Virus record (IMG/VR): IMGVR_UViG_2778261344_000014
Length of the DNA stretch: 4,749 bases
From: a virus
Lineage: Duplodnaviria > Heunggongvirae > Uroviricota > Caudoviricetes
Strand: one strand, 5' to 3'
The notes below the pieces were generated by a model. The model was not told the origin of the DNA. It saw only the letters and a list, made by a program, of their open reading frames with translations, and ran no database searches. Each line of letters opens with the position of its first letter. Within the stretch, counting starts at the first letter, position 1. Below are positions 3,110 through 4,749 of the stretch, piece by piece. A program made the position numbers and the translations under genes.

Positions 3110-3632
3110 ACGAACCCCTGGCAGATATTTGTTTATCTGCAAAGTAATATTGATACTGCTGACGATACGCATGCTTGAAAGCAATAGCTTTTTCTATAAG
3201 CTCGTCAGTCTCACGTTCCACAACAGATGGATCCGCAAAAAGCAGTCCGGACTCCACCACATCGCCATATTCTTTGTTTAACCCGGCGATCATGTACGTG
3301 ATGCTTTTTCCGTCACTAATTTCACGATACAACCTGAAATCATTAATCCGGATAGCCTCCATAATTGCAGGCACTAGCGCCGTGAACTTTTCACGCTTAT
3401 CCCTGGTGTCGATAGCCTTCCAGCGTTCGAATATCTTCACTCGATTAACGCCAAGCGCTCGCTGATCAACCGCGCCACCTTCATCTGTGACACGCTGAAC
3501 ATCGATGTTCGGGCGCTCTTTCAAAACCCAGAATGCTTCAGTGATTAATATCGTCGCCTGCTCCTGTGTCATTCCTGGTCGACATATCCAGGCATCCAGA
3601 GCCTCACGAGCCTGTTCAGGAGTGATTTTCAT
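3081..3632 (-). CDS. 183-aa hypothetical protein in the cII/YdaT position, possibly a YdaT-like regulator
   Basis: ATG at 3632-3630 overlaps the last codons of the Cro-like gene by 17 nt, and the stop overlaps the initiator start by 29 nt, so the three genes are translationally coupled. The segment KIFERWKAIDTRDKREKFTALVPAIMEAI resembles the YdaT-family motif as I recall it; that recall is not verified. Confidence 0.65.
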   Translation of the reverse strand: MKITPEQAREALDAWICRPGMTQEQATILITEAFWVLKERPNIDVQRVTDEGGAVDQRALGVNRVKIFERWKAIDTRDKREKFTALVPAIMEAIRINDFRLYREISDGKSITYMIAGLNKEYGDVVESGLLFADPSVVERETDELIEKAIAFKHAYRQQYQYYFADKQISARGSYEYRCTTMG

Positions 3633-3843
3633 TGTTCAACCGCCCCGCCCGCTTTGCCTTACGATATTCGTCATAAACTTTGGGGTCGTACTGAAGTTCC
3701 CCGCCGGATGCCTCTTGCAGGCGCATCGCGCGACCTTCAGGAACTAGCTCTTGCCATTGAGAAACAGCAGATGGGTCAACGCCAGCAGCTTTCGCTACTT
3801 TGGCTTTCGTACCGTAAAAATTAATTACGTCTGATTTAAACAT
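3616..3843 (-). CDS. dicC: Cro-like HTH regulator of the DicC/YdaS family
   Basis: ATG at 3843-3841 with SD GGAGGTG (3853-3847, minus strand) gives 75 aa; E. coli DicC is 76 aa. The motif AKAAGVDPSAVSQWQELVPEGRAMRLQEASGGEL is YdaS/Cro-like. It is transcribed divergently from the dicA-like repressor. The ORF-track start at 3870 would leave no room for promoters. Confidence 0.7.
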   Translation of the reverse strand: MFKSDVINFYGTKAKVAKAAGVDPSAVSQWQELVPEGRAMRLQEASGGELQYDPKVYDEYRKAKRAGRLNNENHS

Positions 3844-3920
3844 CGCACCTCCAATATTGAGTTTTCTCAATGCTAATCACTCAAGGAATCTCAAGTCAAG
3901 GGTTATTAAGATATCTAAAT
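3844..3920. promoter_or_regulatory. Divergent promoter/operator region between the dicC-like and dicA-like genes
   Basis: A perfect palindrome TTGAGttttCTCAA (3857-3870) overlaps the predicted leftward promoter (-35 TTGACT at 3899-3894, 18-bp spacer, -10 TAGCAT at 3875-3870, minus strand). Direct repeats CTCAAG occur at 3880-3885 and 3890-3895, and TCAAGG at 3896-3901. The rightward promoter is not confidently placed. Confidence 0.6.
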
Positions 3921-4328
3921 ATGAACGAGAAAACTTTAGGTCAACGCATTAGAGAAAGACGTAAGCAGGTAGGCTTAAGTCAAAACGGTTTAAGCAAAGC
4001 TGCTGGCGTATCTGGCTCATCAATTTCATTATGGGAAAGTGACCATACAGCCCCGCGCGGGCAAAATTTGCATCGCCTCGCCGAGGTATTGCAATGTTCA
4101 CCAACCTGGATACTGTTTGGCGACGAGGACAAAACACCAGCTCCCCCTGTTTCACTCGATAGTACCCTAGACTTATCGGAAGATGAGTTAGAGATGCTGC
4201 GTTTGTATCGCGCACTTCCTAAATCAGAGCAACAAGCACAACTCAGCGAACTCCGCGCCCGCGTTGAGAATTTTAATCGCCTGTTCACCGAGCTATTAGA
4301 GGCTCGCAAACGCAACAAGCATCAATAA
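3921..4328 (+). CDS. dicA: DicA-like HTH (XRE family) prophage repressor, the cI analogue
   Basis: Starting at the internal ATG 3921 gives 135 aa, the length of E. coli DicA. The N-terminal HTH is LGQRIRERRKQVGLSQNGLSKAAGVSGSSISLWE. The segment LQCSPTWILFGDEDK and the C-terminal ...RARVENFNRLFTELLEARKRNKHQ match my recollection of DicA. It is divergent from a Cro-like gene and followed by a ydfA-like gene. No SD precedes 3921, so the mRNA may be leaderless. Confidence 0.85.
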   Translation: MNEKTLGQRIRERRKQVGLSQNGLSKAAGVSGSSISLWESDHTAPRGQNLHRLAEVLQCSPTWILFGDEDKTPAPPVSLDSTLDLSEDELEMLRLYRALPKSEQQAQLSELRARVENFNRLFTELLEARKRNKHQ

Positions 4329-4385
4329 TCATCCCTTCACAAAATTTTAAAGCCTTACATTTCAATGTATTGGCTTTATCTTGCG

Positions 4386-4444
4386 CCAATACTTGAGTTT
4401 TCTCATCAAAAAACCTTGACGAAAAATAATGAGAAAACTAAATT
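4386..4444 (+). promoter_or_regulatory. Operator-like motif plus putative promoter of the ydfA/dicB-type operon
   Basis: CCAATAcTTGAGTTTTCTCA (4386-4405) matches the intergenic operator region 3851-3869 at 19/20 with a 1-nt indel. An inverted partial copy TGAGAAAAC lies at 4430-4438. Candidate -35 TTGACG (4416-4421), 17-bp spacer, -10 TAAATT (4439-4444). Confidence 0.45.
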
Positions 4445-4520
4445 ATCTCCATCAACACACCGCACGGTGTTCTCCGCAAACAGTTCCGCTACCCCGGCGT
4501 TAAGGGGAAATGAGGTCAAC

Positions 4521-4673
4521 ATGGATACGCTCAATCTTGGCAACAACGAATCTCTGGTATGCGGAGTATTCTCCAACCTGGACGGCACGTTTACCGCGAT
4601 GACGTATACCAGAAGCAAAACGTTTAAAACGGAAGCTGGCGCGCGTCGCTGGTTAGCAAGAAACTCTGACTGA
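4521..4673 (+). CDS. ydfA: YdfA-like small protein (50 aa), first gene of the dicB-type operon
   Basis: Internal ATG at 4521 with GAGG at 4513-4516 gives MDTLNLGNNESLVCGVFSNLDGTFTAMTYTRSKTFKTEAGARRWLARNSD. Size and position downstream of dicA match E. coli ydfA as recalled. The 102-aa ORF-track form would include the operator and promoter and is rejected. Confidence 0.6.
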   Translation: MDTLNLGNNESLVCGVFSNLDGTFTAMTYTRSKTFKTEAGARRWLARNSD

Positions 4674-4684
4674 TGAGGTTGACG

Positions 4685-4749
4685 ATGGAATTTAAAGATT
4701 TACCTCCTTCAATCCAGGAGATTGCAGCACACACACTTCGTCATCGTCT
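4685..4749 (+). CDS. 5' end of the next small gene in the operon (possibly ydfB-like), truncated by the window edge
   Basis: ATG at 4685 with GAGG at 4675-4678 and a 6-nt spacer, 11 nt after the ydfA-like stop. It reads MEFKDLPPSIQEIAAHTLRHR... with no stop before the window ends. Confidence 0.45.
   Translation, partial: MEFKDLPPSIQEIAAHTLRHR

Follow-up and report, generated by a model that had tools for sequence, protein, structure and literature searches.

The DicA/DicC switch of the Qin prophage in Escherichia coli K-12 and the C2 repressor of phage P22 are the described systems closest to the locus examined in this study. In K-12, the operator Oc (TTGTTAGTCATAACTAACAA) has been shown genetically to bind DicA in vivo, and this binding is lost upon a single base change (PMC3441716). 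DicA bound Oc only, and not the predicted Om or Oa (PMC3441716); these elements were originally defined by Bejar et al. (1986/1988) and are taken here as given in PMC3441716 and PMC10448788. The transcription start of the dicC promoter has been mapped (PMC3441716). DicA represses the dicB-operon promoter, dicBp, 22-fold (PMC10448788), and this promoter is derepressed 22-fold by deletion of dicA but not by deletion of dicC (PMC3441716; PMC10448788). Repression of the dicB-operon and dicC promoters in vivo has been reported for K-12 DicA only (PMC10448788, PMC3441716).

P22 C2 is a protein of 216 aa (PMC10448788) that binds an 18-bp symmetric site and contacts positions 2-7 and 12-17. The central 4 bp are uncontacted, and binding is tightest when the center is an A-tract (PMC4267663). 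DicA has been named among the non-cleavable, antirepressor-controlled repressors of the Gifsy-type GfoR/GtgR family (PMC3121763). The present locus resembles the Gifsy-type systems (PMC3121763) and the PaaR2/YdaS/YdaT switch of CP-933P (PMC8630535), which are bistable lambdoid switches whose hetero-immune members recognize different operators. CP-933P also has a leftward operon with YdaS/Cro-like and YdaT/CII-like genes, as found here. However, the repressor sequences and operators of these systems differ from those of our locus.

Organization of the immunity region

The window (the entire 4,749-nt stretch of DNA that was analyzed) represents the immunity region of an E. coli lambdoid prophage of the Qin/mEp460-like kind. 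Close copies of the region, defined as one match spanning at least 80% of the query, were present in at least 767 of the 5,426 complete E. coli genomes searched, and phages mEp460 and HannyBb carry one as well. A gene for a 75-aa Cro/DicC-like protein (3616..3843, minus strand; Pfam P22_Cro, E=6e-17; 70% identity to K-12 DicC) heads the leftward early operon and is followed by YdaT/CII-like, O-like, and P-like genes. Divergent from it is the gene for a 135-aa DicA-like immunity repressor (3921..4328, plus strand; Pfam HTH_3, E=2.5e-15). Downstream lies ydfA (4521..4673, plus strand; Pfam DUF1391, E=1.5e-28), the first gene of a rightward dicB-type operon, and dicB itself is annotated downstream of ydfA in the matching genome record. 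This gene order (dicC-like, dicA-like, ydfA, and then dicB) is that of K-12 Qin, and the two prophages share an insertion neighborhood beside rspB and ynfA.

The DicA-like repressor is 99.3% identical to that of the active phages mEp460 and HannyBb. The window belongs to the same immunity group as these phages, and its Oc, Oa, and OL sites (see below) are identical in loci L022 and L023. The protein is homologous both to K-12 DicA (57% identity across 127 aligned residues, residues 5-131) and to P22 C2, whose N-terminal domain is the closest solved structure (E=8e-16). Its N-terminal 72 residues, which include a P22-C2-like helix-turn-helix, align with P22 C2 without gaps (E=8e-16; PDB 2R1J, 3JXB), with the recognition-helix changes N32G, V33S, A34S, Q37L, and N46R. 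Unlike P22 C2, the protein has no LexA/S24-type C-terminal cleavage domain. Pfam matches of the 135-aa protein are to helix-turn-helix families only, and no S24/LexA-like autocleavage or peptidase domain was found. A candidate antirepressor in the window is an ORF6N/Ant-like gene that follows C4 and isrK RNAs.

A sigma-70 promoter scan of positions 3780-4560 returned only two predictions, and both are overlapped by copies of the motif described below. The predicted cro promoter (3870..3899, minus strand; 9/12 matches) has a -35 TTGACT (3899-3894), an 18-nt spacer, and a -10 TAGCAT (3875-3870), an architecture that resembles the K-12 dicC promoter. The predicted ydfA/dicB-type promoter, equivalent to dicBp or PL (4416..4444, plus strand; 9/12 matches), has a -35 TTGACG, a 17-nt spacer, a -10 TAAATT, and a predicted +1 at about 4451. 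Upstream of it, a hairpin followed by UUUAUCUU (4348..4378, plus strand) is likely the dicA intrinsic terminator and would part dicA from the ydfA promoter. This structure folds at -11.3 kcal/mol (z=-3.9), and 0 of 200 shuffles fold equally well. A simple terminator scan found nothing, and the hairpin, which carries an internal bulge, was detected by folding only. For the ydfA 5'UTR, a single-sequence fold was no better than shuffles (z=+0.67), and RNAalifold did not find a consensus structure across 8 diverse sequences.

Putative operators at the two early promoters

The initial annotation had described a 19-nt string shared by the two promoters. This string is present as CCAATATTGAGTTTTCTCA at 3851-3869 and as CCAATAcTTGAGTTTTCTCA at 4386-4405, but the second copy matches only via a 1-nt insertion, and the real repeated unit is a core of 13 to 16 nt. 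Exact matches to the 13-mer TTGAGTTTTCTCA lie at 3857 and 4393, and an inverted one with one mismatch lies at 4430-4442. At up to 2 mismatches it gives 3 matches versus 0.21 expected, and none of 200 shuffles reaches 3. A shorter 9-mer at up to 1 mismatch gives 5 matches versus 1.46 expected, with 3 of 200 shuffles reaching 5; alone, it is not significant. The motif string was not found in the searchable literature, and the mEp460 papers listed show no sign, in title or abstract, of an operator study.

We built a weight matrix from 15 sites in five lineages. The scan gave high scores for three main copies: 28.2 bits at 3856-3871, 26.7 bits at 4428-4443, and 23.7 bits at 4392-4407. The further copy proposed inside dicA scored just 8.7 bits. 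In shuffled windows, the best score has a mean of 6.4, a standard deviation of 3.1, and a maximum of 16.3. All three strong copies are inverted repeats of 16 bp with the consensus ATTGAG-TTTT-CTCAAT, in which half-site bases T4, A6, and G7 are invariant (T is at position 4 in all 15 reference sites). The palindrome recognized earlier in the first copy (TTGAG-TTTT-CTCAA at 3857-3870) is indeed present and extends to ATTGAG-TTTT-CTCAAT at 3856-3871.

Two other sequence features were rejected as operator components. The CCAATA flank of the 19-nt string differs among relatives. At the first copy, its CC is part of the GGAGG ribosome-binding site of the cro-like gene, and the bases that follow vary (CCAAAG, CCAGTA, CCAGGC, and others); at the second, CCAATAC is found in approximately one-third of 79 distinct sequences, and TTAAATA is as common. 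Likewise, an 8-nt inverted repeat, GTATTGGC/GCCAATAC (4367-4374, 4385-4392), is not kept in L003 or L004.

The strongest copy is the putative OR1-like operator Oc (3856..3871; 28.2 bits), a perfect 6-4-6 inverted repeat that overlaps the last 2 nt of the cro -10 and the predicted +1 (about 3863). Its core is invariant in all relatives, Buttiauxella included. As in K-12, Oc adjoins the cro/dicC -10, and its placement with respect to the cro ATG is also the same. Two further candidates, absent from the initial annotation, lie in the dicC-dicA spacer and could, with Oc, make up a three-operator OR layout. The OR3-like candidate Oa (3905..3920; ATTAAG-ATAT-CTAAAT; 9.5 bits) is the fourth-best weight-matrix match in the window; it adjoins the dicA ATG and shares bases with a -10-like TAAGAT (3907-3912). 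The element is kept in Buttiauxella and in 183 of the 185 related loci, whereas its flanks vary, and a type-matched counterpart occupies this position in other immunity types. The P22 operator consensus is ATTTAAG....CTTAAAT, and the Oa element ATTAAGATATCTAAAT comes close to being a P22 operator. The OR2-like candidate Om (3879..3896; ACTCAAG-GAAT-CTCAAGT), identified with a half-site table, is a weak operator candidate. It scores 1.1 bits, has one good half-site (ACTTGAG) and one poor, and is partly kept in Buttiauxella (CTCAGG). The center of Om is 24 bp from that of Oc and 25 bp from that of Oa, and the Oc-Oa center distance, computed by hand from coordinates, is 49 bp in both the window and K-12. 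By analogy with their K-12 counterparts, Oa and Om may have no role in repressor binding.

At the ydfA promoter, the putative operator OL-distal (4392..4407; CTTGAG-TTTT-CTCATC; 23.7 bits) spans approximately -59 to -44 and adjoins an A-tract and the -35 on their upstream side. Within it, TGAGTTTTCTCA forms an invariant block in an alignment whose mean column identity is 75%. The putative operator OL-proximal (4428..4443; AATGAG-AAAA-CTAAAT; 26.7 bits) is inverted relative to OL-distal and covers the promoter spacer and five of the six bases of the ydfA -10. An inverted partial copy had been reported here, and TGAGAAAAC is found at 4430-4438, with the 8-mer GAGAAAAC starting at 4431. The segment TGAGAAAACTAA of OL-proximal is invariant, and the 8 nt from the -35 to the site are rewritten by lineage (gaaaaata, caggcgcc, caacactc). 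Inverted-repeat sites thus overlap both divergent early promoters, with Oc at cro and OL-proximal at ydfA.

The centers of OL-distal and OL-proximal are 36 bp apart in 111 of 120 loci, and this is the only motif pair with conserved spacing. Likewise, the -35 of K-12 dicBp lies between two Oc-like copies spaced 35 bp apart, and the same two-site layout with a spacing of 35-36 bp is present at the dicB-type promoter in L005 and L006. At least four immunity types share it. A weight-matrix scan for a third operator 24 bp upstream, downstream, or between these sites gave nothing above background. In 4329-4520 only two sites rise above background; OL thus differs from the lambdoid three-operator arrangement and, being two sites 36 bp apart, from the adjacent operators of P22.

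Conservation of the sites and co-variation with repressor type

The operator cores are invariant in E. coli lineages (about 90% identity) and in Buttiauxella, whose repressor is 74-76% identical and has the same SSISLWES helix, while the promoter spacer and flanks are rewritten. Among 120 viral contigs there are 40 distinct inter-site sequences, across which the T.GAC of the ydfA promoter -35 is kept. Sites and repressor predict one another. When contigs were retrieved by the motif pair, 110 of 111 encode a GVS.SS[IV]SLWE repressor just upstream, and the same 110 carry a third motif copy 533-536 nt upstream. When loci were instead retrieved by repressor protein, the sites were present in all 80 of them, exactly in 76 and with single-base variants in 4. 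Prophages with the same repressor but without the motif, which the initial annotation had named as evidence that would count against its proposal, were therefore looked for in these 80 protein-defined loci and not seen.

Operator sequence also co-varies with repressor specificity. Hetero-immune relatives with other recognition helices have other palindromes at the same three positions. The matrix of identities between Oc and the ydfA-promoter region is block-diagonal by type, with 13-16/18 within types and 9-12/18 across types, and the hybrid L013 falls between. For example, K-12 Oc matches the ydfA-promoter region of the window at 10/18 positions versus 14/18 for K-12's own promoter. The L039 sites have an ATAT center and half-sites that are the same as in the ATTGAG type. 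Co-variation alone cannot tell which protein reads the sites, because the repressor and Cro genes are co-inherited with the operators.

This evidence bears on several alternative explanations. That the similarity is due to chance, or is a non-functional leftover of duplication or recombination, has a negligible probability. Recombination is frequent in immunity regions, which are mosaic (L005 and L006 have half of the intergenic region in common), yet no shuffle gives 3 matches of the 13-mer, and the cores are kept in two genera and among 40 distinct inter-site sequences while adjacent DNA has diverged, a pattern that effectively refutes such an origin. The looser matches raise a different question, namely whether the copy in dicA codons 2-7 (3924..3939; the inverted partial copy GAGAAAAC reported at 3927-3934) is a fourth functional operator that pairs with Oc approximately 68 bp away for looping or autoregulation. 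It contains GAGAAAACT, which matches the 9-mer exactly, and with 8.7 bits it ranks fifth among the weight-matrix matches of the window and is situated in the control region, where 0.04 matches of at least 8.5 bits are expected in 309 nt of local base composition. It is also kept in most E. coli-lineage copies. However, it reads GAAATGACG in Buttiauxella and GAAATAACT in L039, relatives of the same specificity in which the changes include synonymous ones while neighboring Oa and the three main operators stay intact. The T at position 4, invariant in the 15 reference sites, is missing from both half-sites, other immunity types have no equivalent site, and an offset of 19 bp from Oa is out of step with the 24-25 bp periodicity of the operators. 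We consider a functional role for this copy unlikely; on sequence grounds it is probably coincidental.

Other alternatives accept the three main copies and assign them to another reader. The Cro/DicC-like protein could be the main or only reader, with the DicA-like repressor recognizing something else. The Cro recognition helix PSAVSQW is found together with ATTGAG-type operators across relatives, just like the repressor helix, and in lambdoid phages Cro generally binds the same operators as the repressor. Such sharing is expected and does not conflict with recognition by the repressor. Moreover, K-12 Oc binds DicA, and dicBp responds to deletion of dicA and not of dicC (PMC3441716; PMC10448788). 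Between L005 and L006, the Cro helix-turn-helix is near-identical whereas DicA helix 2 and the outer Oc bases differ (CCTTAG vs TGTTAG), which suggests that Oc tracks DicA. We therefore regard Cro as very unlikely to be the principal reader. It is extremely unlikely that the repeats are simply promoter architecture or sites for an A/T-preferring host nucleoid protein. The region is 61% A+T, the -10 hexamer forms part of OL-proximal, and H-NS/Cnu affects the K-12 dicA region (PMC3441716). However, all immunity types have the -35 and -10 hexamers and the layout as a whole in common, and the palindromes alone switch, together with the repressor and Cro helices; a host-factor site or promoter element would stay unchanged.

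Predicted reader and mode of repression

We conclude that the DicA-like protein encoded at 3921-4328, a short immunity repressor related to P22 C2 but non-cleavable, very probably uses the motif copies as its operators. All comparative tests run here support the initial proposal that one such repressor controls both promoters, as in Qin: the K-12 layout, the islands of conservation, the reciprocal prediction of sites and repressor, and the hetero-immune palindromes. A repressor dimer would bind each inverted repeat of 16-18 bp (consensus ATTGAG-TTTT-CTCAAT), possibly in a cooperative manner, with the helix-turn-helix of each monomer reading an outer TTGAG half-site. The half-site in P22 is TTAAG, and both operators are symmetric with four central A/T base pairs. 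The A/T-only central 4 bp probably act via DNA shape, and the invariant TTTT center can be understood because P22 C2, a relative of this repressor, binds A-tract centers most tightly.

Bound at Oc (3856-3871), over the cro -10 and +1, the repressor would block RNA polymerase and so silence the early genes cro, ydaT, O, and P. OL-proximal (4428-4443), in the spacer and -10, and OL-distal (4392-4407), upstream of the -35 and A-tract, would jointly shut down the toxic dicB-type operon. The Cro-like protein probably acts at these sites too, as well as at Oa and Om, with the opposite preference, which would yield a bistable switch in which activation of dicA may also take part.

Both the operator word (ATTGAG-TTTT-CTCAAT in the window and TTGTTAG-TCATAA-CTAACAA in K-12) and the recognition helix (GSSISLWES and SHVSVSQWER, respectively) differ from those of K-12 Qin, and we therefore rejected the possibility that the motif is the K-12 DicA operator. 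The window type and K-12 Qin should accordingly be hetero-immune, and a K-12 DicA weight matrix would miss the window sites. The putative operators constitute a new specificity within the known lambdoid repressor/operator system, and our understanding of how such switches work is unchanged by the finding. For a prophage immunity type that is common in E. coli and whose module controls a dicB/dicF-type operon for cell-division inhibitors, comparative evidence nonetheless defines the operator word and maps the sites. This map could serve to predict immunity groups and cross-repression between co-resident Qin-like prophages and to design induction reporters for them. The half-sites TTAG, TTAAG, and TTGAG, which go with Q or L in the recognition helix, also offer a natural specificity-swap series for P22-C2-like DNA recognition.

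The layout at the ydfA promoter invites a more tentative reading, which we consider possible but doubtful. Repression of the PL-type promoter in the DicA family may proceed unlike that in lambda or P22, by means of just two inverted operators, at a fixed spacing of 35-36 bp, that bracket the -35 and a UP-like A-tract. In the window type, an obligatory A-tract center would be read by shape, possibly by Arg46, which stands where the P22 repressor has the minor-groove-mouth Asn46. A spacing of 36 bp corresponds to about 3.4 helical turns, so that direct dimer-dimer contact is not obviously favored. If this reading is correct, the OL pair would act as one clamp, either a tetramer or a wrapped complex, rather than as independent or adjacent cooperative sites.

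The immunity region and its two predicted promoters

Bases 3600-4749 match, at 100% identity, a prophage of Escherichia coli CFSAN027343 that adjoins rspB and ynfA and continues downstream with dicB, an exonuclease gene, xis, and int. The genes include a P22-Cro/DicC-like gene on the minus strand (3843 to 3616), with YdaT/CII-like, O-like (DnaT domain), and lambda-P-like genes to its left, a plus-strand gene for a helix-turn-helix repressor of 135 amino acids (3921-4328, here called dicA), and ydfA (DUF1391; 4521-4673). The repressor shares 57% identity with DicA of E. coli K-12, and the Cro protein shares 70% with DicC. The sequenced phages mEp460 and HannyBb carry an immunity repressor that is 99% identical to that of the window. 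This gene set, the repressor and Cro homology, and the match to the two phages identify the region as the immunity module of a Qin/mEp460-like lambdoid prophage.

The initial annotation described a four-copy operator-like motif at the dicC- and ydfA-proximal promoters. Its string positions are correct save for a one-base slip (4430/4431), but the CCAATA flank proved to be lineage-specific. Exact copies of the 13-mer TTGAGTTTTCTCA are found at 3857 and 4393, with an inverted copy bearing a single mismatch at 4430-4442 (three matches versus 0.21 expected; three were reached in 0 of 200 shuffles). A shorter 9-mer on its own is not significantly enriched in the window. Each of the three sites is a 6-4-6 inverted repeat with the consensus ATTGAG-TTTT-CTCAAT. 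When scored with a weight matrix derived from 15 sites in five lineages, they reach 28.2, 26.7, and 23.7 bits, and the maximum in shuffled windows averages 6.4 (sd 3.1).

A promoter scan of positions 3780-4560 returned exactly two sigma-70-like promoters. The minus-strand promoter of the cro-like gene (-35 TTGACT, 3899-3894; 18-nt spacer; -10 TAGCAT, 3875-3870) has a predicted +1 at about 3863, and its predicted operator Oc (3856-3871) covers this position and the final two bases of the -10. The plus-strand promoter of the ydfA operon (-35 TTGACG, 4416-4421; 17-nt spacer; -10 TAAATT, 4439-4444; predicted +1 at about 4451) has two predicted operators. OL-proximal (4428-4443) occupies the spacer and most of the -10. 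The other, OL-distal (4392-4407), spans roughly -59 to -44 and is followed directly by an A-tract and then the -35. Transcription of dicA probably ends ahead of this promoter, at a stable hairpin with a trailing U-run (4348-4378; -11.3 kcal/mol, z=-3.9).

This layout is shared with the Qin prophage of K-12. There, a 20-bp Oc (TTGTTAGTCATAACTAACAA) abuts the dicC -10; an in vivo assay showed that DicA binds it and that one base change abolishes binding (PMC3441716). Bound there, DicA represses dicC and activates dicA (PMC3441716). DicA also represses dicBp 22-fold (PMC10448788). In the K-12 sequence, 16 nt separate Oc from the dicC ATG, and the dicBp -35 is flanked by two Oc-like copies 35 bp apart. 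However, the operator word and the recognition helix differ (GVSGSSISLWES in the window versus KISHVSVSQWER in K-12).

The K-12 layout, the footprint, the reciprocal search, and the co-variation described below agree with the proposal that one DicA-like repressor has predicted operators at both promoters. Judged from sequence, the motif copies very probably serve as the operators through which a hetero-immune repressor of the DicA/P22-C2-like family controls both early promoters. Although systems of this kind are well known, this operator specificity type was not found in the searchable literature.

Predicted operators among relatives

Two loci from E. coli lineages with about 90% identity (L003 and L004) retain TTGAGTTTTCTCAT and ATGAGAAAACTAAATTA exactly. 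In two Buttiauxella species, whose repressors are 74-76% identical with an unchanged SSISLWES helix, the core is held at both promoters amid otherwise diverged DNA. Alignment of the dicA-ydfA spacer shows its longest invariant stretches at TGAGTTTTCTCA, T.GAC (the -35), and TGAGAAAACTAA, and alignment of the dicC-dicA spacer shows TGAGTTTTCTCAAT and TATTAAGATATCTAAATATGAA to be invariant. The 8 nt from the -35 to OL-proximal are unrelated across three lineages (gaaaaata, caggcgcc, and caacactc). In a more distant member (L039), Oc reads ATTGAG-ATAT-CTCAAT, with unchanged half-sites but a different A/T centre.

Searching IMG/VR with the motif pair alone yielded 120 contigs with 40 distinct inter-site sequences. 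In 111 of these, the upstream DNA was long enough to assess; 110 of the 111 encode a GVS.SS[IV]SLWE repressor immediately upstream and carry a third motif copy 533-536 nt upstream. The motif might have been missing from prophages with the same repressor, but all 80 of the IMG/VR contigs found by the repressor protein carry the sites, one OL site being a single-base variant in 4 of them, and the proposal thus withstands this check. The spacing within the OL pair is fixed: 111 of 120 loci have 36 bp, and K-12 and two relatives (L005 and L006) have 35-36 bp.

Hetero-immune relatives have different palindromes at the identical three positions: CCTTAGATTTTCCTAAGG in L005 and L008, TGTTAGACTTTTCTAACA in L006 and L007, TGTTAGTCATAACTAACA in K-12 and L016, and TGTTGAGTTTATTTAACA in the hybrid type, L013 (helix SHATISLWES). 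For every type, Oc resembles the ydfA-type promoter region of that type far more closely than those of the other types. Best identities are 13-16 of 18 within the window type, 10-14 between window-type Oc and the hybrid promoter, and 9-12 between window-type Oc and all other types. The Cro helix likewise co-varies with operator type. L005 and L006 have nearly identical Cro helix-turn-helix regions but differ in DicA helix 2 and the outer Oc bases, which hints that Oc tracks DicA. Between the L005/L008 type and the L006/L007 type, Cro is almost unchanged and the right half of the dicC-dicA spacer is identical, including the candidate auxiliary operator Oa (ATTAGAATTACCTAA), but DicA helix 2 and Oc differ. 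The two types form a natural recombinant pair that could separate DicA from Cro specificity determinants.

Several further features of these loci were observed. The A-tract AAAAAA (4408-4413), immediately 5' of the ydfA -35, is kept as (T/C)(C/T)AAAA(A/G) in nearly all 40 inter-site variants. It lies where a proximal UP-element subsite is expected, and thus OL-distal may also hinder alpha-CTD contacts. Four IMG/VR prophages with an intact repressor (L158, L218, L219, and L221) have a single-base change in one OL operator (TTGAGcTTTCTCA, TTGAGTTTTaTCA, ATGAtAAAACTAA, and ATGAGAAAACcAAATcA). They may be naturally occurring operator-down variants, or the prophages may be cryptic and the sites drifting. 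This E. coli-type immunity region is also present in metagenome-assembled genomes assigned to Bacillota, Veillonella parvula, and Collinsella (L009, L010, and L014), with the window's repressor at 99% identity in L009 and L010 and a K-12-type DicA in L014. These assignments most likely reflect binning contamination by E. coli prophage contigs.

Repressor recognition and the dicA start

Among solved structures, the N-terminal domain of P22 C2 is the nearest relative of the repressor (E=8e-16, 72 residues ungapped). P22 repressor binds as a dimer to an 18-bp symmetric site, contacting positions 2-7 and 12-17 but not the 4 bp at the centre, and its binding is tightest where these form an A-tract (PMC4267663). 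In this numbering, the window half-site is A2-T3-T4-G5-A6-G7, with T4, A6, and G7 invariant and a TTTT centre; the P22 consensus half-site is TTTAAG. Residue 46, at the mouth of the minor groove, is Asn in P22 but Arg in the repressors of the window, Buttiauxella, and L039. Arg46 may contribute to reading the A-tract, although this correlation is not exclusive because a TTTT centre is also seen where residue 46 is Ala or Gly.

An element absent from the initial annotation, candidate Oa (3905-3920; ATTAAGATATCTAAAT; 9.5 bits), abuts the dicA ATG and is kept in 183 of 185 loci, and other immunity types have type-matched equivalents. Together with a weak candidate, Om (3879-3896), it gives centres for Oc, Om, and Oa that are 24 and 25 bp apart, a spacing like that of lambda OR. 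In K-12, Om and Oa did not bind DicA in vivo (PMC3441716). The window candidates may be low-affinity, cooperative, or Cro-preferred sites.

In the partial copy within dicA (3924-3939), which had been counted with the motif, the centre is intact but neither half has T4. This copy is not conserved in Buttiauxella or L039, where synonymous changes alter it and neighbouring sites are unchanged, and no counterpart was seen in other immunity types. We consider it unlikely to be an operator, and rate it no lower because the chance expectation is small (0.04 matches of at least 8.5 bits per 309 nt at local composition).

No Shine-Dalgarno sequence precedes dicA, a -10-like TAAGAT (3907-3912) ends 8 nt ahead of its ATG, and an upstream ATG at 3870, considered as an alternative start, is unconserved (ATT in the Buttiauxella locus L011). 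This combination suggests that the dicA mRNA is leaderless or nearly so, like those of lambda cI from PRM and paaR2 of CP-933P (PMC8630535).

The ydfA leader and an antirepressor-like cassette

The ydfA-operon leader (4451-4520) and its equivalents in six relatives (L011, L013, L016, L019, L020, and L039) begin with a conserved CATCAA, followed by a short hairpin (ACACCG-CA-CGGTGT in the window, AATCACT-CAGC-AGTGATT in Buttiauxella), then GTTC(C/T)G, which is also conserved, and a second, boxB-like hairpin. Folded as a single sequence, the leader does not reach significance, and no consensus structure emerged from RNAalifold applied to a MAFFT alignment. The leader could be a nutL-like site.

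At the other end of the window, all on the minus strand, a C4 antisense RNA (277-361; 69 bits in Rfam) and an isrK Hfq-binding RNA (387-461; 51 bits) immediately precede, in transcriptional order, an ORF6N-domain (Ant/KilAC-like) gene (28-222). This arrangement is reminiscent of antirepressor cassettes of the P1/P7 immI or Gifsy isrK type. Because the repressor has no cleavage domain, induction might proceed through this cassette, in a manner comparable to Rem in Qin. Bases 1-73 are wholly unlike the CFSAN027343 record, and the remainder is identical save for one SNP at 975. The junction falls within the ORF6N gene, leaving an ORF of 64 amino acids in the window versus 183 in CFSAN027343; either the junction is a mosaic breakpoint or the antirepressor-like gene has been truncated.
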